A stretch of 57,750 bases of DNA, counting the filler, from Streblomastix strix (lineage: Eukaryota), in NCBI GenBank assembly GCA_008636045.1. It is 3 parts of 3 records of this genome, joined end to end, with 100 filler letters (N's around TTAATTAATTAA, not from the genome) between each part and the next. Parts side by side here need not be neighbours in the genome. Positions count along the whole stretch, not along the records: positions 19,287 to 38,471 come from SNRW01000539.1; 2 more parts are not named here. One strand, given 5' to 3'. Shown one piece after another: positions 24,845 to 55,381 of this stretch (positions are counted from its first letter, which is position 1; each line of letters starts with the position of its first letter). Position numbers and translations under genes: made by a program. The notes beneath the pieces are model-generated. The model did not search any database, was not told the DNA's origin, and worked only from the letters and a program-made list of their open reading frames with translations.

Positions 24845-27800
24845 ATGAATCGCGTTAAAGTAACTTTAGTAGGTGGGAAGGGTACAAAAGGATAAAATCA
24901 ATAATAGACCGCCACACTGGATCCATTCATAGTGCTGACACTCAACACACAAAAATACACTTCGTCGGTCAGGCGCGGCTTGGATCGTATATATAATATT
25001 TTTTTTATTATTATTATATATTAATTTTTTATTTTCAAACAGCAATGTGGAATGAAGGGTTCGTCTTCATGCTTGGGCCGTTCCCTCCAGTTCTTGAGGT
25101 CAAAGTTCGCCACCAAGATCGAATGAAAATGACACCTCCAGAGGATATTGGAGCTAATACAGTGGATCTTACTGAGGCAATGCAAAAATTACCTTAAAAC
25201 GTTGGGGCATGCCTATAAATTAATTTTAATTTTATTTTTTTATTCTGTACTTTATTTTTGCTCCTGCTCTACATATTGAATTTTTATTCAGGTAACAACT
25301 TCTTGGGGTCATATTCTCCTCCGTATTGAGGATCCTGATAAGGAGCCGCTACTCACATACACGCCAGCTCACATCGAAATGTCTCCATTCGCGAATGCCC
25401 AGGCCGCCATTGCATAAACAATCCCTCCAACAAATAAAACTGATAAAATTATCGTGCACACTACTTCAAAGCAGATAATACTAATGGGCGCTCCAGCATC
25501 TGGGAAGGGAACGCTCTGCGACAAATTAGTTGCAAAATACGGTTTGCTTCTTTGGACAATTTATTTTAATAATAAATCTATGTTTTTTATGTGAAATTTA
25601 CTTTAATTTTATAATATTTATGTTTCATTCTTTGTTATATCACATTTCAGGCATTGTTCACATTGGAACTGGCGATATCCTGAGAGCTGCAGTGAAAAAT
25701 AAAACTGAGCTTGGCCTCAAGGTGGCAGATTTCATGGAGAGAGGATAGCTTGGTTTGATCGTCATACAATAATATTATTCATTTTACATAACTTTGAAGC
25801 ATTTATACAATATATTTTTTTTCCTCATTATTTATTCAATATAATTATTCAATATATTTATTTTCCAAATATTTATTTATTTATTTAGTTCCCGACTCGC
25901 TCGTAATCCAAATTGTGAAAGAGAAACTCGAGACCCAGGAAGTAATGAAGCATGGATGGCTCCTTGATGGATTCCCGAGAACCCACGTTTAAGCACAAGC
26001 AATGAAAGCACAGAATATTAATCCTACTCATGTGATACAGATTGATATTCCTGATCATGAGTTGATGGATCGTGCTTTGGGAAGAAGGTATAACATGTAT
26101 TTTATATATTGAATGGGTTGGTTTATTCATTGTTTTATTCAATTATTTATTATAAATAATAATAATCTATTAATAATTTATTTCATATTTAATTTAATAT
26201 ATTATTCATATTCATTTTCCAAATATACAGAATCGATCCAGTAACCAATAAAGTGTATCACATAACAGCAAAACCTCCTCCAACTGAAGAGATCAGACAG
26301 AGAATGATACACAGGGATGATGATAAGTAGGATAAGGTTTATATTAATAAAATATGAACTTGATTATATTATTATATTGTATTATATTATTATTATATTG
26401 TATTAAATAATTATTAGATTAAATTATTTAATAATATAGTTATATTAATTATTGATGAGGTTTATTATAATTATTTTAATTGTTATTATAATTTATTTAG
26501 GTTCTTTATCGTCTAAGATAGCATTATGAGAATCTAATTCCATTACAAGAAGCATATAAGGTATAAATAGTCATTATATTAAGTTATCATATTAAATATA
26601 TTTTTATTATATTATTATATTAATATAATCTTCATATTCATATTCATATATATTATTATATATAATCTTCATATTCATATTCATACATATTATTATTATC
26701 TAATATTCATATATATTATATTAATCTAATCTTCATATTCATATTCATATATATTATTGTATACAATCTTATTCAATAGGATGATATTATTCGTGTAACT
26801 GGGAAGAACTCTGATGAAATCTGGGAAATTGTGCAGAAGATTCTGGCAGGAGATGAAGAACTGATTAAGAAGTTGTAGGTGTGGAATATATATAAATAAT
26901 GAATATTTTATATACGAATCAATTTATATATAATAGTAAATCAATTTAACTATTTTTTATATTAATTATATTCAATATATCATATTATTTATATTCAATT
27001 TATATATATTCAATATTTATCATCATCAATCAACCAGTCCAAAGACATAACCACCTACATCCTATCATTGGGTGGTTCCTTAGTTGCAACTCCAGGTCCA
27101 AATATTAGTTTCATTAAAGATATCGCTAAGATGGTTCTTAGATTGATGAAGAAGAACATACATGTGCATGTAGTTGTTGGAGGTGGGAGGATTGCTAGAG
27201 ATTATATACAGGCAAAGAAGGATTGCGCAGCTGGAATGAACCCGGATTTGACCGATTTTGAGGTACGAATTAGTAAGAAAAGATAATAGATTGAATTTAT
27301 TATTATATATTTATATATATTTATTATTGTATATTTATATATATTTATTATTATATATTATTATATATTTATTATTATCTATCATACCACATATACCAGA
27401 ATGACCAATGCGGCATCCTAGCCACCAGATTAAACGCGCACCTACTATTAGCAGCAGTAGGTGAATATGCCAAGAAAGAAATCCCACTGGATACAACAGC
27501 AGATTCAGTAGTACCAGGAAAGATCACAATTATGGGTGGAACATTTCCTGGATAAACAACAGATGCAGTTTCAGTGAAACTTGCCAGAGCAATAAATTGC
27601 AAGTATGTGATCAACGCTACTAATGTTCCCGGGGTCTATGAAAAAGATCCAAAAGCTAACCCCGAAATACCGTTGTTGAAAAGAATGACATCTAAACATC
27701 TAGTTGAGATTGTTGGCAATGAGCACAAACCTGGCAATTCAGTAATTGTTGATCCAATCGCAGCTGGCATTCTTTTGGAGGAGAAGATAACGTGCTATGT

Positions 27801-27888
27801 TGTAGATGGATCTGATATTGATAATCTGGAGAGGTGCATTTTGGGGCAGGATTTCACTGGAACTACAATTGAGTATGAGGATGAATGA
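24845..27888 (+). CDS. C2 domain + adenylate kinase + archaeal-type UMP kinase (PyrH) fusion, 10 exons, 611 aa
   Basis: Exons 24845-24986, 25043-25206, 25292-25541, 25651-25752, 25889-26087, 26231-26336, 26501-26560, 26780-26878, 27038-27262 and 27400-27888 sum to 1836 nt in one frame. C2 motifs: LDPFIVLTL...PMWNEGFVF...QDR...DIG. AK motifs: [43 protein letters not shown] motifs: LSLGGSL, VVVGGGRIARDYI, DQCGILATRLNA, GGTFPGQTTDAV, NATNVPGVYEKDP, VDPIAA, GTTI. Confidence 0.9.
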
Positions 27889-28765: not shown

Positions 28766-32197
<3,432 letters not shown>

Positions 32198-32708
32198 AAT
32201 CAAAGGCGAGTCACCTTTCTGCAAAATAAAAATTATAATAATAAGTATGAAAAAAAATAACGATGAAAATGAATAAATAAAGCGATGAAGATGTTCATGA
32301 ATATATGGAGTTGTAATCTTCAGAATGTGTTCAAACGAATAAAATTATTAAATTAATCATTCCAAAAATGTTGCCAAATTAGCCATTGCGTGCAGAACGT
32401 TTCAAACAGTTAATTTAAATGTTACTATGCATTAATTCGAGCGAATGGGTGGTGTTAGTAGAGTTAATAATAACAATATTCCTAATAACTATTTGTAACT
32501 AATATTTAGTACATGTGAAAAGCAAAATTAAACTTCTCTATTATCGGAAATATTGTTTTTAATTTTAATTGAGTAAAAATATTTGAAAATGATGGCTATA
32601 CTATGGGAGGTTAGAAAATTTTGAAAACTATTTATGAATTAAAGAAATATTTGAGTGTGATTAAGATGGTTGCCAAACAGACGACCTGCAAAATGGCCCA
32701 ACTTCTAA

Positions 32709-35700
32709 ATGGCTCAACTCACTGCTTAAGCTACAGCACTACTCTCAGACGTATGCATTGAATATTAAGTTATGTTTGCTTAATCCATTTTTTCTGGAAA
32801 CATAGGACAGACTGGCAAAACGGCGCGAAGTTTGGAAAAACTTCCTCTGGCTTTCACAGACCCCACGTGGTTCTGGGCATCCTGAACCTGTTAGAACTAA
32901 GTTGTTAGAGCTAGTGAGATCGATGGGTCATGAAGCAGATATTGATAGCGCAGGAAATGTTCTGGTGCGAGCAAAGGCAAGTTCTGGAGAAGAAGGACGT
33001 CCGTGGCTGTGCCTACAGGCGCACTACGACATGGTTGCTGTGAAAGATGACACTTCATCCATTGATCTAATAAAAGAAGGAGTTGGCAGTGGAATAAGAT
33101 TAATTGATACAGATTCAGAACTTCAGGGTAAAACTGGCATGATGGCCACAGGTTTGTTAGATAGATTTACAAACTGTTCACTCATTTATTCCTCAACACA
33201 ATCAGGAACCAGTCTTGGTGCCGACAACGGAATCGGAGTTGCAATTGCACTCGCCATACTGGAGGACAAAGAAATTAAAAGAGGACCATTGGAAGTGTTA
33301 TTCACTCGTGATGAGGAAACATCGATGGCTGGAGTGAAGAATATTGATGCATCTGAATTGAAGAGCGATTTTCTTATAAACCTGGACTTTGAGGAATAGA
33401 GAGTGATTTGTATTGGGTATGAATAATAATAATATTTAAATTTTATTTAAATATAAATATATTTATAATGAAATAAGTTTATCTATTATATTATTCATTA
33501 ATATTTTTTCATACTTATTATTTTTTCATAAAATTTTTTTCATTTATTTCTTAATCTATCTATACATCCTTATTTCAGCTCCGCCGGTGCCTTCGACGAA
33601 GAGTACGACCTCAAACTGGACATTAACACACCCATAGAAAACAACCATAACATTAATTACATCCAAATTGAGATTAGAGACCTTAAAGGCGGTCATTCTG
33701 GAGTGGAGATTAATACTGGAAGAGCGAATAGCTCTAAATTACTTGGATTCGCTGTTGGATAAGCGGTTAATAATAGTGGGTTGGGAGGTTTGATGATGTT
33801 TGTGTGGGAATTGGAGATGGAATGAAGTGGATATATTATATTATTATTTATTCATTATTTATCATTTATTTTTCATTTATTTATTTTTATATTATTAATT
33901 CATTATTTATCATTTATTATTATATATTATTGAAAAACTACTGCATTTATTTTTTTATTATATTCTATATTTATTTTTCATTTAATTTTATTATATATTT
34001 ATTTTATTATATATAGATAATTGGGGCATATCCTCATTCGTTTCAGGATCACAGCACAATGTAATCCCTAATAAAGGTGTAGCAATTGTCTCAATATTCA
34101 CTGAACAAGGAAAATAAAAAGAATTAATCGAATTAAAAGAAAAATTTATCAACGAAATAAAAAAAATTGAATCAAAACTTCAGAAGAAGTGGAAATAAGT
34201 TGAACCAAATCTGAAATTAATTGTAACTGAGCTTGTAGATGAAAAATAAGATAAAATTAGGCTGTGCTATACAAGTTAATCATCATTGAGATTATTGGAC
34301 AGTTTGTAGATACTGCCACATGGTATGAAGGATGGAATGGAATACATATATTCATTTGTATTTATTATATAGATATTTATACTATAAATTATTTTCTCTA
34401 TATATTGTTATTTAATATTTATTTATTATATAGATATTTATTCTATAAAATATTTTTTCTATATATTATTATTATATTTATTTATTTATTCACTATTCAA
34501 TTATTATAATATAATATCCACTATCATATGTATTTTCAATTACAGGAGTACTTAAATTATCTCCAATGTCAAATGAATTAGTAGAAACATCCATTAATTT
34601 AGCAGTTGTCAATCTGATTGAACCAGAAATTGAAGATTTGAATGAAAAAGAATAAATTAAAGAGAAAGAATAATTAAAAGAAAAGAAAGAAGAAGATGTT
34701 GAAGATGTATAGAATTGGTGGAAAGCTAAAAGTATTGATTATATTTAATTTTTATTCTGAATAACATTTAAAGTAATTTAATTATAATAATTTAATTATT
34801 ATTTATTTATATTGCAATTTAATATATAATTCAATTATTAATTTTTTTCTAATTAATTGTATTCAAATATCAGAAAATACTGCAATCATTCATTTAATGG
34901 GCAGATCAACTGATTTCAAGCAGTTAGAATATGCTCATGATTAGATACAAGCAACTGCTAGACTACTTGGAGCAACAACTAGTATGTGCATGGTAATATA
35001 TATTATTATATATACAAACTATGTAATAAAAACCATTTTTACAAAATTAATAGATAAAAATTAATTTATGTTGATATTATCTTTTTATTTATTTAATAAT
35101 TCTTTCATTTATTTTAATATTTTCCTATTTATTATCAGGTGGAATGACCAACACTCAGAATGCTTGGGAACCTGATCTCACAAATCCACTTCTTCATATT
35201 GGAATACAATGTTACACTCAGGTTATAATGAAATTATTTATTATTATTATTATTATATAAATGTAAAATGAATATTATTATCATTATTTTATTTATTATT
35301 TAAATAATTTGAATATTATTGTAATATAATTATAATATGTTATTATTTATTATAAAATCATTTTGAATATAATTTGAATATTTTTGTAATGTATTATTAT
35401 TTATTATTATATGTATAAATAAAGGTGTATAAACGAGCTCCAATCATTTATGTTGTTCATGCTGCTCTGGAATGCGGAATATTGAAGAGGTTTAATAATA
35501 ATAAGAATTATAATTATTGATACTAATTAATTTATAAATAAATTCTAATTAATTTATAAATTAATATTTATTTATATTTATTTATATTTATTTATATTTA
35601 TTTATATTTATTTATATTTATTTATTTAAATTATTTATATTAATTTATATTAATTTATATTTATTTATTATTTTAATCACAAAAGCAAAAAACCATCATT

Positions 35701-41083: not shown

Positions 41084-44000
41084 TCATAGAAATAACTCAA
41101 AAGAAAGAAAGGTAAAAAATAAATGAAAAAGAAATCTACTTGATTCGCAATCTATATAACTTTCAGTAGTGAATTCATAGATAGATGGTAAACAACTTTA
41201 ACTATTTTTAAGTATTATCATCTTAGTTTAAAAACCTGTTAACGCATTCTTAGTTGATAATAACTTACTCATACAATAAGTCTTGGATAATTAATCTTAT
41301 TAATCTGATTATTAACTTAGTCTTATATTAGTTCCTTGTGCTATTTTTCCACTAACGAAATTATCAATCACGTCTTATTTGTTTATTTTGCTCTATCTAA
41401 GATTAACTCCTTTAAGCTTAATTACATAGATTAACTTCTATTATTTAAATATATGAATATAATAATTCTTAGGGGCTAATGCAAATTTCTCATCTCCTTC
41501 ATTTTCAATAGAATAACCTAGTCATTTTTTTTCATCTGATTTATCACCATCGATAGTTGGAAAAAATTAATCGCATTATTAGCATAAAACAGCTTGTTAT
41601 TAATAACACATTTGAAACCTTAATGTAAATTATCTTCGTACTCTTAAAAATTGATTAATTACTTATCTTAATAAATCATAGGTAAATGTTTTTTACTAAT
41701 TGTCCAATAAGCTGAATCAGTATCTCCTTCTATGAAATGTAATTTATTCATATCTAAGCATTTAAACATGAAATTATATATGAAATTAAGGTAACAATAT
41801 TTAGTGTTATCTAATGAAAAATAAACTACTTATAAAAAAGAATTGCATTTACAATCATTAAGGTTAAATTAAACAGCATAAAGGTTATCCGCTAATTTAC
41901 AATCATTTATCCATGATTATTTGGTATGAGCTTCTTTAGTCTTATCTTTAGTAAGTAGTTTGATCTTGTTATATTTCTCAGTATTCATACCATTAGATCC
42001 TTAAAAAGCGTTTAAAATCAACTTATAAAATTTTTATAATCGACTATTCTTTTATTTAATATCTTCAATACGTTTATTCATGAACTCATTAACGAAAGCT
42101 TTAAACTTAATATGCTTAATGAAAGTAACTATCTGTTTAATATCATCGATTATGAAAATGCAATCATCAATTAAGAACAATAAGTAATGAGAACTAAATA
42201 TCATATATTAAATTTGAGTAGATAATAGATTAGTTAATTTTCTTTCTTATATATTAGTTCTAACACCAACTGATTTCATCTAATCATATATATATTCACC
42301 GATAACGTTTTTATTAGTTGTATAAGATAAGTTATGGAATATTGGGGGAAATTAATTAAGTCGTTAATGTAGTGCTCATCAATATGTCCCTTCAGCTATG
42401 CAATTAAATAGTTATCCATTTTCATTGAATCGATCGTTTGATTTAATTATTTTTCTAGCTAATTCTAAATCTTTAATAATACCTCTAACAGAACCACACA
42501 TATATATAATATCGTTAGTATACTTGTTAAATGGATGATATTAAGATGAAAAACAAGATGGATATAACTAATTAAAATCTAGTCCACAGATATGAGAAAT
42601 AGTATGATTAGTATTGATTACTGTTATAGTTTTATTCTACTCATTATAATATTTTCGTTTAATTGTATCAATATTAGCTCTATTATATCGATGCATTACA
42701 TTAGATAGTCCACCAGTTATATTTCGTCTTATGAGTTAATATACTTCATCGTTTACAATTGTTTAAGGGAGATGGTTAATGTTATAAAATCGTCGAAGTT
42801 AAATAAATAGTTTAATGATTTTTTTATCCTTGTTTGATTTATAACGATTACTATATAAGCAACATGGCTTGCAATTTGATTTAGTATGAGGAAGGTGATT
42901 ATCAATACGATCTAATATAGGATTATTATCTATAATAAATTTATCACCTCATATAACATAGGCAAAGTGTTCGAATAGATCTTTATAATTATCGAAATCG
43001 TTAATGTTAATGTTATTGTTTGTCTTTCTATGTTTAATATTATCTTAAGTGTTATATACAATTACTTTATATTTCCAATAGCTTTGATATTGAATGAAAG
43101 AGCTGGAGTTATTAATTGTTTAAGAATAATTAGTGTTAAGATCAAAATCTTTATAAGCCATAGCATATTTAATAGCATTTGCATTAGCAGCTGAGCTCAT
43201 AAAACTAAGCATATCAACGTTGTATTAATAGAACCAGTTAGTCAAGTTGTCTATTCGTTGTATCATTATCTATGTGTCGAATTCATTATAGTGTTATAGT
43301 GAGTCCCATCTTGTTTGATAGTCTTTAGCATCATCTAGATATAATTGGTAATCTTCATTAGACATAGTTTTATTTTTCAACATTGAATCATACGATCTAA
43401 TTGGAAAGGGTTACGACTTAATTAATTCATAATTATAGTTATCATAAGTGATCCCTTCATATGTAAATAGCCCTATAGATTAATTATTTTTTTTGCCAAA
43501 ATCCTTAGCGAATTTGGCTAAATCAGTAGGTTAAGTGTAGTACATTGCATCAAAGAAACTAATACATTATTTAAACTGTATATTTTAAACTATTATCTGT
43601 TTACCTTATCCATAGCCACCGATGTAGGATTAGATAGTCCACTTATCACAATGAACATATTTAGAGAATAGAGCTTAATCGAATCTGCTTGAATTGAATC
43701 CTAAAATTGATGCATTTTAGTTATATGGAATTTGCTCATCATCATACTTATTATCTATTGAAACTTGTTTAGCCTCTTCGAATACCTACTCGATCCATTA
43801 TGTTATAAAATCAGGTCCATTACGTAAGTCAAAATAAATAGTCTTCAACGCTACTAGTCCAAGTGGAGTTTCAATTTTTTATTATGGTTATCATTACTAT
43901 ATTATTCTCCCCATTTAAGTTTAATAGTTGAAGCTACGGATAGGGGTTCGAAAATTAATATCCATTAGCTATTTCGTTTAATTTGTTTGTTACTTATCCC

Positions 44001-45747: not shown

Positions 45748-46047
45748 AGAAGATATTATTGGCGAGACTGGCAATATTTCTAAAATGTAGGGACAAATAT
45801 ATTTAATAAACCAGCAGAATTAAGCGATCTGTTTTGAGGTAATGAAACTGTTATGATGATAAGTTGTACTTCTGTACGTTTAATTTTAAGCATTAGTTTA
45901 TGTTTGATTCACATCGATTTATAATGTTAATTCTTGAGACTAGTATATTACTTTAGCTGTTTCAGGCCAGCTTAATTCTGGCGCGTTTATTATTTGGATT
46001 TGTCTACGATTTTGAAAATAGTGCCAATCTCACCATTAATATCTTCT
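45748..46047. repeat. Imperfect ~78-bp inverted repeat between the divergent PolB and helicase genes
   Basis: 45748-45825 (agaagatattattggcgagactggcaatattt...agaattaagc) pairs with 45970-46047. Confidence 0.7.
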
Positions 46048-46064
46048 AAGATACAACCGAATAA

Positions 46065-47796
46065 ATGAATGATGAACTTGCATAAGTTTGTATTGATGGG
46101 TTGAAGAATCTTGATTTAGATAATTATCCATAATCAATCAATATCGAAATATATCTTCTAAGTTTATTCTGTGGATTATATGGAATCAGTAATGAATCAA
46201 TTAGAGTTGAAGGATTAAGTAATATACGCAAATTCAAAAAGCTAGCTTCAAACGCTGATAAGAACTATGGATAAGCTTCATCTAATGGAGAACGTAAGCC
46301 AAATCCATGGATCTTAACAAAATTCTTAACGTATTATAATAAAAACTACTATGAATAGATAATTAAACCATTATTGAAACAGAATTACGAAGTGAAAAGG
46401 TAATCGAAAATATTTTATACGGTGAAATAAATTGAGAAACATGAAATTGATCTGAAAAATGTGTTAACATTAACAGATATATCTAGTAAAGCACTAAATG
46501 GATAATATTAAAATTAATTTGAATTAGTTGCTGAAGATTTGCTTAAAATAATAAAGGTTGTACCTTGCTAAAACGGATGGTGTTTCATCATTAAAGAATA
46601 CGATTGTTTACATAGTACTAATACAATTCATTATAAAAATAAGACAGCGATCTATGACTAATTAAATTCAATAAGACTTTGGTAAGACGGAAAGAAACAA
46701 ATCATTGCAATCGATGCTTTAGAATAATATCATTCCCTATTCGAGAAGGTAGGTATAAGATACATTAGTTAAAACCCTAAGATTTTCAGTGTATTCTAAG
46801 GATATAAGTACTTACAATTAGAAGAAGTGAACTATACAAAAATAGAAGGATTCCTAGGATTACTGAAAGATACAATCTCTGCAAATGATGAATTGATTTA
46901 TGAATATTTACTAAATTGGTTTGCTTATATTGTGTAGAATGCTGGTAAGAAAACTGAAACTGCTATTATACTTCAAGGATTATAAGGCATTGGAAAAAAT
47001 GTATTTATTAACGTATTATGTGAACTATTGGCAGGATACTCATCGAAGAACATTACTGATATAGATGATTTTGTTGGAAAATTCAATGTAGCTATCGAAA
47101 ATAAGATGCTTGCAATTGCTAATGAAATGAAGAATTTTGGAGAATCGAGAATGTCTAATATCGATGCGTTAAAGTCAATAATTACTGAATATTCATTTGT
47201 TGTTAATGAAAAATATATTCCAAAGCATGAGGTTGAGAATGTAGTGAATATGATACTTGTTACCAATAAAATCTTTCCTATAAAAATAGAGAATAATGAT
47301 AGATTCTATGTTGTATTCAAATGTAATTCAGTTCATCGAGGAGATCCAGCTTATCTCACTAATCGTTGCAATATTTTTGATGAAGATTTTTTTTAATAAT
47401 TTATTTACATTCTTTATAACTAGAGATATTTCTTAATTTGAACCAAGAAACATTCCAATAACATAAGATATGAAAGATATAATAAAAACATCATGATCAA
47501 AAGTTGATGATATTATAATTGATCATTTCAAGTAGTTCAAAGATGATGTAATCATATCAAAAGTCGAGCTATGGAAACATCAAGATATGGTTCTAAAAAA
47601 TTATCAGTTAGCGATAAATAATATATGCAGCCAAGTATGAAGAACAACAAACGGATAAAGAAAATGGTACCATAAAATGAAAGAAGAAATGGTTAAAATA
47701 TATGATAATATGTTAGATGAAGAAATTGATGAGAAAGAAGCTGAAGTATAAACAGTTGTACTAGAAAGGTAATAAAAAGGTAATGAATACGTATGA
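46065..47796 (+). pseudogene. D5-like superfamily 3 helicase (C-terminal part of a primase-helicase), degenerate
   Basis: YLLNWFAYIVQ...AIILQGLQGIGKN (Walker A)...GKFNVAIENKMLAIANEM (Walker B)...LKSIITE...NEKY...MILVTN...IENNDR. Frameshift in a poly-T run near 47395 and internal TGAs further downstream. Confidence 0.8.
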
Positions 47797-53710: not shown

Positions 53711-54814
53711 CACAAATTTAATCATTCCACAATTAAAAATGGTGGCTTCTATTGCCAAAACTTACAATAAACAACATCAATTATCATTATGGCTTTAAAT
53801 TAAAATTATGGTTATTTGAATTGGGAGTAATTAGTTCCAATTCTGCATCTGAATCTTCTTCACTTGAATCTTTTTGAATTCTTTATTTCTTAGTTTTAAA
53901 TTCGATATTTGAAGATTCATGATTCTTCACTTCAATGAAAACTGGACTTTGAATTAAAAATAACAAATTATTTTTGTAAATACAAATAAAACTTATTTAT
54001 AAAAATTATTACATATTAAACATTATTTTTTGCAATTTCTCGTGCAACACTATCCAATTTTACTTTATACATCCAAATTTGTGTCAATTACTAAACAAAA
54101 TGGCCAAAACTTAAAATTCTAGTTTTAACTACGCATATGTGTTACAATTTTGTAATTTACCTTATATTCAATATAAAATGATGTTATATTTTAATTACTG
54201 CCTTTCTTATAACGCATTGAACATCATATACTAGAATAACAAATCTTCTTGAAAAAAGTTTTTTCAACCATATATTAATATTCAATATCAATTTGTAATA
54301 TACATTTCTTGCTAATAACATATTTAATATAATATTTTATCTCATTTATACATTTCTATTTGACACTTGCAGTTGTACGCACTTTTAATTGCATAATTAA
54401 TTAATTCAACATTACTCGAGTTCGAAATTAGATTAATCATTTATGTGAATATTTTTTACTTTTATGCGCACGATTGCATATTTATTATTACATAAATATC
54501 AAAACTATTCATTATTAATAGAGAAAAGGACTTTTTTTTTTCATTTTAACACTTTTTTCAGGATAAACATTACATTTAATAACTTTATTTTTAATTTCAT
54601 AATCCAGATGCAATAATGCTTATCTTTGGATAGTTTTGATGACCTTTCTTCAAATTCATAATTTCTATTTTACACAACGCCGAACAATATCCATTTTCTT
54701 ATTTCATAATCATTATTTTCTTTACTCTATATTCTCTTACTTCATACCATTATTTTCTATGCTATCCATTCTCTTACTTCATATTCATTGCTTTCTATAT
54801 TTTTCTATCAAAAG

Positions 54815-55381
54815 ATGTCTGCAGAAGAACCAAAACCCGAAGATAAGAAAGAGGGAGGTGAATGCAAGAAAGGAGGACCTTGCGGTGGAAAGGGTGGCCA
54901 TGGAGGCCATTGGCACAACCATCGTCACCACGAAAAGGGAGCCTGGAAGAAGCGTCAAGCAGAAGGTGGTGACAAGGAAGGAGGACCACACCATTGTCAC
55001 AAGGGACCAGGAGGAGAAGGAAAAGAAGGTGAAGGAGAACATCCACATCCCCATGGACCACATGGAGGACGACACGGAGGACCACCAGGACCAGATGGAG
55101 TAGTAGCGAAAGATGGAGATGGAAAAGAACATCCACATTGGCACGGTGGACCACCAGGAGCTGAAGGTGGACATCCAGGAGGTCGTGGACGCGGATTCTG
55201 GAGACATAGACGCCATTTCCATGGACCAGGATGGAAACCTCATGATAAGAAGGGAGGAGACAAACCCGAAGAGAAGAAAGCTGAAGAAGCTGAATTGCCA
55301 AAACCCGGCGAGGAAGATGCAAGTTACAGCAGCTCAAGCAGTGGTGAAGAACCCGAAAAGAAGGAAGGTGATGCGAAATGA
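54815..55381 (+). CDS. His/Gly/Pro-rich intrinsically disordered protein, 188 aa, single exon
   Basis: A clean GC-rich ORF, MSAEEPKPEDKKEGG...GGHGGHWHNHRHH...HPHPHGPHGGRHGGPPG...EKKEGDAK*, with sharp AT-rich flanks. Confidence 0.8.
   Translation: MSAEEPKPEDKKEGGECKKGGPCGGKGGHGGHWHNHRHHEKGAWKKRQAEGGDKEGGPHHCHKGPGGEGKEGEGEHPHPHGPHGGRHGGPPGPDGVVAKDGDGKEHPHWHGGPPGAEGGHPGGRGRGFWRHRRHFHGPGWKPHDKKGGDKPEEKKAEEAELPKPGEEDASYSSSSSGEEPEKKEGDAK

Follow-up and report, generated by a model that had tools for sequence, protein, structure and literature searches.

A predicted C2–adenylate kinase–UMP kinase gene of Streblomastix strix, probably joined at an inherited intron

Does one gene of Streblomastix strix encode a C2 domain, an adenylate kinase (AK) and an archaeal-type UMP kinase, and how could such a protein have arisen? 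The question concerns a locus within a window of 57,750 nucleotides, the whole stretch of DNA analysed here, for which an initial annotation had proposed a single 611-amino-acid protein made of these three parts. Using NCBI table 6, ten predicted exons were found to form one open frame closed by TGA, in line with this proposal. The coordinates of the focal gene, its domains and a neighbouring paralogue are summarized in Table 1.

Table 1. Predicted features of the focal gene and of its convergent paralogue (positions in the window).
Feature	Position	Strand	Remarks
Whole gene	24845..27888	+	10 exons, predicted 611-aa C2-AK-UMP kinase; TAA/TAG = Gln, TGA = stop
Exons 1-5	24845-24986, 25043-25206, 25292-25541, 25651-25752, 25889-26087	+	NCBI table 6 reading
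Exons 6-10	26231-26336, 26501-26560, 26780-26878, 27038-27262, 27400-27888	+	NCBI table 6 reading
C2 domain	24845..25340	+	about residues 1-118, from exons 1 and 2 and the first part of exon 3; intron 2 likely GC-AG
AK domain with 9-residue linker to the splice donor	25469..26878	+	AK about residues 162-365
Junction intron	26879..27037	+	159 nt, phase 0, contains an in-frame TGA; coincides in alignment and phase with the AK1-AK2 intron of the paralogue
Archaeal-type UMP kinase domain	27038..27888	+	residues 375-611; split by the phase-0 intron 27263-27399
Convergent paralogue C2-AK-AK	28766..32197	-	604 aa, 16 exons; likely source or sister of the focal C2-AK half

In a pairwise alignment the start methionine of the focal gene lines up with that of the paralogue, and the focal gene is free of N. 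The region is AT-rich, with a GC content of 30-46% in the exons and 7-25% in the introns. The length of 611 residues results from a GC donor of intron 2 at 25207, while a GT donor at 25201 yields 609 residues. The GC donor closes a two-residue gap versus the paralogue and scores 4.0 bits compared to 1.4 bits for the GT donor; the first intron of the paralogue, as modelled, is likewise of the GC-AG type. Both gene models were built from frame and homology in the present analysis, and the splice-site matrix used below is therefore not independent of them. With respect to the genetic code, TAA encodes the Gln residue in two motifs, "QA" of the AK and PGQTTD of the UMP kinase, thus at aligned Gln positions in both halves of the protein. 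TAG occurs where the P-loop of the paralogue has its Gln, as well as at four further positions within the focal frame. Since conserved Gln positions of both genes are affected, the TAR = Gln code, reported for Streblomastix and a Cryptocercus oxymonad in the available part of PMC13002328, is borne out locally.

The C-terminal domain had been annotated as a UMP kinase of the archaeal type, neither bacterial nor eukaryotic, and this classification was confirmed. On TIGR02076 its two exons gave 45.7 and 149.5 bits (profile positions 2-58 and 64-222), which add up to 195 bits against a cut-off of 158.05, a rough sum as the domain was scored exon by exon. The bacterial TIGR02075 gave 22.5 and 38.1 bits on the same exons. 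Five full-length members of the Preaxostyla clade described below pass TIGR02076 with 189-206 bits versus 158. The closest PDB sequences were those of archaeal UMP kinases from Archaeoglobus (2IJ9), Pyrococcus (2BRI/2BMU) and Sulfolobus (2J4J). Aligned with 2IJ9 and 2BRI, the motifs GGS, GGG..AR.YI (with the equivalent of Arg49), GGT.PG.TTD and N..GVY..DP were located at residues 384, 422, 495 and 522. Pro replaces Asp in the DGVYxxDP motif, as it does in the M. exilis and Blattamonas enzymes. In part, the roles of these motif residues are described in PMC12404492 and PMC3082897. As a proxy for the focal domain, the AlphaFold model of the 59% identical relative P0009 was employed (pLDDT 94.7), which reached TM values of 0.82-0.88 to Pyrococcus/Sulfolobus UMP kinase chains (ranks 1-8) and of 0.70-0.76 to bacterial ones. 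The claim that the domain bears an intron was found correct as well, with one intron inside it (Table 1).

For the AK, PF00406 and TIGR01351 each matched on single exons, with an exon score of 63.5 bits on TIGR01351 compared to 26 on TIGR01359. An alignment of the focal AK to the paralogue, P0160 and archaeal Adk shows that it keeps the P-loop, LDGFPR, GRR and RDDD motifs, with Gly in place of the usual Ser in the H-I-S-T-G-D motif. Judged from the alignments, both active sites of the focal protein look intact. The focal AK is 58-60% identical to the AK units of the paralogue, AK1 and AK2, and represents the most diverged of the three units; its identity to P0160 is 40%, that of the paralogue's units 49-50%. 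An AK8 chain gave the top total score to the focal AK exons, while per domain AK8 reached 46.6 bits versus 55.4 bits for the maize chloroplast AK, and the N-terminus is a C2 domain. This AK8 likeness, not clear per domain, is the one pointer to a putative flagellar location. By its sequence, the focal AK is native and not co-transferred with the UMP kinase. Transfer of an archaeal adk-pyrH pair was ruled out by an identity of 41-42% to archaeal Adk encoded near pyrH compared to 58-60% to the paralogue, and by the introns common with the latter. Such a transfer had been considered since in 7 of the 119 loci fetched (L019, L029, L033, L046, L054, L056, L066) adk precedes pyrH in the same orientation, at a distance of 0.1-2.8 kb; these prokaryotic neighbours are a parallel pairing of the two activities found in the focal protein.

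The C2 domain was matched weakly by PF00168, with complementary halves of the profile on separate exons (positions 2-44, E 0.015, 16.0 bits; positions 49-94, E 0.0074, 16.9 bits), each under the Pfam cut-off of 22 bits, versus 34.6 bits for the C2 domain of the paralogue. Its frame is intact, and 58 of 115 aligned residues (50%) are identical between the two. We take five acidic positions in C2 loops 1 and 3 to be the calcium ligands. Compared to 1WFJ and the paralogue, the first of them is absent from the focal domain and the third is His (Asn in the paralogue), and 2 or 3 of the five acidic positions are left, fewer than the five of calcium-binding C2 domains. Calcium-independent binding is therefore likelier than a calcium switch.

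Whether the two kinases belong to one gene depends on the junction intron (GT-AG, 14% GC). With a leave-one-out matrix of the 24 introns of both genes its donor ranked 6 and its acceptor 16, and both scores fall inside the range of the other 23 introns. The fusion requires TAG to be read as Gln, as this is the last codon ahead of the junction. According to the initial annotation the spliced frame has neither a stop nor a separate ATG here. No in-frame ATG precedes the first motif of the UMP kinase, the first one at 27131 lying past this motif. The intron itself carries an in-frame TGA after seven more codons, and one roundabout start can be drawn (ATG 26899, donor 26936, acceptor 27044). Intron retention would thus end the C2-AK protein, and a shorter C2-AK form is possible. 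Read as two genes or isoforms, the locus would produce a C2-AK protein stopping at this TGA and a UMP kinase transcribed alone. The formal ATG-GT-AG start just given exists, and all named relatives are stand-alone UMP kinases. Moreover, two Streblomastix models in PMC10703272 bear consecutive numbers, st3905 in a UMP kinase orthogroup and st3906 in an AK one, which fits neighbouring genes and is compatible with a split gene or with a fused gene beside the AK paralogue. Nevertheless, we regard two separate genes as very unlikely. The acceptor of the roundabout start scores -5.5 bits, under all 24 modelled acceptors, and 9 of the other 23 introns offer a similar start. Furthermore, 159 nt offer little room for a 3' end plus a promoter, compared to the 877 nt which separate the convergent stop codons of the focal gene and its tail-to-tail paralogue.

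The strongest argument comes from this paralogue. All eight introns of the focal C2-AK part match it in aligned position and phase, the paralogue having one extra, and the eighth match is the junction itself: the AK-to-UMP kinase splice of the focal gene falls precisely on the site of the AK1-to-AK2 splice in the paralogue, which speaks against two genes. A 9-residue linker, similar in both, leads from the focal AK and from AK1 to the respective donor, while the terminal AK2 stops at the domain end. On this comparison of sequences, the C2-AK half is part of a local family including the adjacent C2-AK-AK gene, and this explains the junction. The gene model claimed before was confirmed, with its junction splice as a prediction; the local C2-AK family and the neighbour behind the junction had been overlooked. 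We also considered whether the locus is a chimera of the assembly or a degenerating pseudogene copy, given the mobile-element remnants and four N runs elsewhere in the window. This is highly improbable, even more so than the two-gene reading: the focal gene has no N, its ten exons are in frame without internal TGA, the join coincides with an inherited intron whose phase works, and TAA is read as Gln at aligned Gln positions in both halves. Overall, the focal locus is very probably a single gene with a predicted junction splice.

Further frames were noticed in the window. Just upstream of the paralogue lies an M20/M28 peptidase frame (32641-33468, minus strand). A Ser/Thr kinase frame at 15385-13001 (minus strand; Pkinase E 2.8e-71) resembles Fused/STK36; beyond it, on to 1730 on the same strand, very long frames of 310-1818 aa follow, without a Pfam match among those scanned, and the entire stretch 15385-1730 is possibly one giant gene. 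A DNA polymerase B2 fragment (41371-42375, minus strand) and a DUF5906/VapE-like primase-helicase frame (45849-47438, plus strand) are likely remnants of a Polinton-like element. The frame at 54452-55378 (plus strand) ends in a Gly/His/Pro/Lys-rich low-complexity stretch and gave no Pfam match.

Turning to the origin of the UMP kinase, the focal domain and the stand-alone P0009 share 59% identity across 226 residues. A HMMER search of 1.84 billion representatives yielded two proteins near 60% identity, followed by a fall to 50% or less. Among the best 120 of 999 matches of a profile search confined to proteins of 41-410 aa, a range that cannot reveal fusions, a Preaxostyla group ranked above the archaeal matches. 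This close group comprises the enzymes of M. exilis (231 aa, KAH7831700.1), Paratrimastix pyriformis (231 aa, KAJ4460835.1) and Blattamonas nauphoetae (251 aa, KAK2962207.1) plus seven further sequences; the databases already name these stand-alone enzymes. The PyrH phylogeny proposed as a check was run with FastTree (53 selected sequences, 42 of them fetched proteins and 10 from the 39 genome loci; 223 columns; midpoint root, no bacterial outgroup). The focal domain nests among the Preaxostyla enzymes, forming with ten relatives one clade with a support of 1.0, from which Paratrimastix splits first; the archaeal sister of the clade was not resolved by this tree. The nesting rules out a recent transfer. 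In agreement, orthogroup q2007863 of PMC10703272 is represented by a single gene per species in five Preaxostyla, with blanks in 14 other metamonad columns. Hence, of the suggestion that a laterally acquired PyrH had been fused to an AK, the archaeal type and the predicted fusion were retained, while transfer and fusion turned out to be separate events, with a gene that stands alone across Preaxostyla. Judging from the sequences, the lineage likely acquired the archaeal UMP kinase gene ahead of the diversification of Preaxostyla, with the fusion likely being a later event. Relative to the M. exilis Met, the focal UMP kinase begins two residues earlier; a splice acceptor formed shortly before the former start would produce this pattern.

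Among 80 metagenome and 39 genome loci none was close to the Preaxostyla clade, the best segments being 32-48% identical to P0009; the locus read in detail (L001) has an archaeal-like gene content. In five clade members of 145-150 aa (P0010, P0163-P0166), the initial Met lies directly behind the site of the intron in the focal UMP kinase, a hint that other oxymonads share this intron. Another member, P0162 (281 aa), carries an N-terminal Ser/Thr/Lys-rich low-complexity extension of about 45 aa, unrelated to AK. Outside Preaxostyla, a figure key in the accessible part of PMC4967989 lists both UMP kinase and UMP-CMP kinase for diplomonads, so the enzyme may extend beyond Preaxostyla among eukaryotes.

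How was the chimera formed? We consider it reasonably probable that the locus is one spliced gene in which an old archaeal-type UMP kinase was joined behind C2-AK, probably by exon shuffling at a phase-0 intron, with a coupling of both kinases deduced from their known reactions. The C2-AK front end of a C2-AK-AK gene would have been copied up to the AK1-AK2 intron and placed ahead of a formerly free-standing UMP kinase gene. Tandem AK-AK proteins outside the Preaxostyla lineage, namely P0160 and the AK8 chain with its two matching stretches, favour C2-AK-AK as the older state, with the UMP kinase taking the second slot. AK1 and AK2 of the paralogue, however, are 90% identical at the protein level and 82% over 823 nt of DNA, introns included. 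This near-identity appears as a sign of recent duplication or gene conversion, and the AK-AK arrangement of the paralogue may consequently postdate the fusion, so that the order of events is not fixed.

A real fusion could also be functionally incidental: a duplicated C2-AK captured a neighbouring UMP kinase gene, and UMP kinase activity maintains the chimera, to which AK and C2 add little. The relatives manage with a stand-alone enzyme of 231-251 aa, a C2-AK-AK gene adjoins the focal gene, the focal AK has diverged most among the three units, and the extension of P0162 shows that additions at this end are tolerated. The branch of the focal UMP kinase is also long (0.44 versus 0.14 for M. exilis), and the greater divergence of both focal kinases compared to their relatives would fit relaxed selection as well. 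Still, all recognisable catalytic motifs of the AK have been kept at a mere 58-60% identity, which points to selection on AK activity, and the C2 frame has stayed intact at 50% identity to the paralogue. We judge an incidental fusion to be rather unlikely, and favour joining by shuffling together with coupled activities.

In such a coupled protein, the UMP kinase would convert salvaged UMP to UDP (ATP + UMP -> ADP + UDP), and the attached AK would use ADP to form ATP and AMP; a single ATP could then suffice for two UMP. From the known reactions of both enzymes the net conversion would be ATP + 2 UMP -> AMP + 2 UDP, although free diffusion of separate enzymes would give the same net chemistry. 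Pyruvate phosphate dikinase (PPDK) uses AMP and could return it to ATP. PPDK has been reported in Streblomastix and Trimastix (accessible part of PMC1665464), and M. exilis is described in the available sections of PMC6759080 as relying on nucleotide salvage without de novo pyrimidine synthesis; together, these reports give the coupling a plausible pay-off. The C2 domain might anchor both kinases to a membrane or scaffold, probably independently of calcium. Prokaryotic UMP kinases form hexamers, the archaeal ones being UMP-specific and not stimulated by GTP (PMC12404492, portions available). If the focal UMP kinase kept the hexamer of its family, a particle with six C2-AK arms would result. 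More speculatively, and in our view improbable as a complete picture, a hexameric archaeal UMP kinase might be the hub of a eukaryotic nucleotide-recycling particle, with six C2-AK arms, a tether to membrane or cytoskeleton, two UMP phosphorylated per ATP and PPDK restoring AMP, serving as the main UDP route in a salvage feeder lacking mitochondria. Were this true, shuffling at one inherited intron would have built a laterally acquired gene into a multidomain protein of the host, in a traceable way.

The fusion was found in one genome only. In search of another fused form, the last UMP kinase exon was compared with proteins of 285-2000 aa and gave one match among 1637 candidates, a 316-aa protein without AK. 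In search of another C2-AK, the C2 frame of the paralogue was compared with proteins of 469-2000 aa and gave one match among 1286, an AK-AK protein without C2 annotation. The HMMER search described above, run against 50% representatives, yielded 1208 matches, of which the best 150 are 116-462 aa long and none matches the C2-AK half. Within the limited reach of these protein searches, neither a second C2-AK-UMP kinase nor a C2-AK protein elsewhere was retrieved; since they also missed the product of the focal gene itself, the absence of a second fusion is only weakly shown. In the literature consulted, no description of the fusion or of an archaeal UMP kinase in Preaxostyla was found, and table S9 on lateral transfers in PMC6759080 may list the M. 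exilis transfer. Judged from these sequences, C2-AK-UMP kinase is a genuine domain architecture that combines known enzymes, is restricted to one lineage and has apparently not been described before.

Papers on bacterial enzymes (available parts of PMC12847342 and PMC3082897) describe the UMP kinase fold as lacking a eukaryotic counterpart. In contrast, Preaxostyla do carry the archaeal version, and one lineage has apparently fused it to an AK. The adjacent paralogue keeps the intron at which the fusion likely occurred, making the route from transferred gene to chimera readable in 7 kb of DNA. With the focal protein it would also be possible to test directly if an anaerobe saves ATP through the fusion of two unrelated nucleotide kinases. 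Altogether, we regard it as an evolutionary and enzymological curiosity of one lineage and not as a new class of system.

Compared to known systems, the UMP kinase domain resembles archaeal PyrH (TIGR02076; 2BRI/2BMU, 2J4J, 2IJ9) in its amino-acid-kinase fold and in its motifs throughout the domain, with about 36-43% identity to prokaryotic members. Unlike those, it is eukaryotic, split by an intron and located at the C-terminus of a C2-AK protein. With the stand-alone Preaxostyla UMP kinases it forms one clade and has in common an insertion after the ARxYI helix, whereas these enzymes are 231-251 aa long with no AK or C2 annotated. The AK half is closest to AK8-like and chloroplast AKs (AK8 chain of 9FQR, maize 1ZAK, P0160): 9FQR and 1ZAK are the best PDB matches of its exons, and the short lid region is alike. 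AK8 and P0160, like the paralogue, have two AK units, while the second unit of the focal gene is a UMP kinase of unrelated fold; in contrast to the AK8 and chloroplast enzymes, the focal protein is led by a C2 domain. The usual eukaryotic route from UMP to UDP is the UMP-CMP kinase (available part of PMC12404492). This enzyme (TIGR01359) has the AK fold in common with the AK of the focal protein, yet the focal UMP kinase domain is of a different fold.
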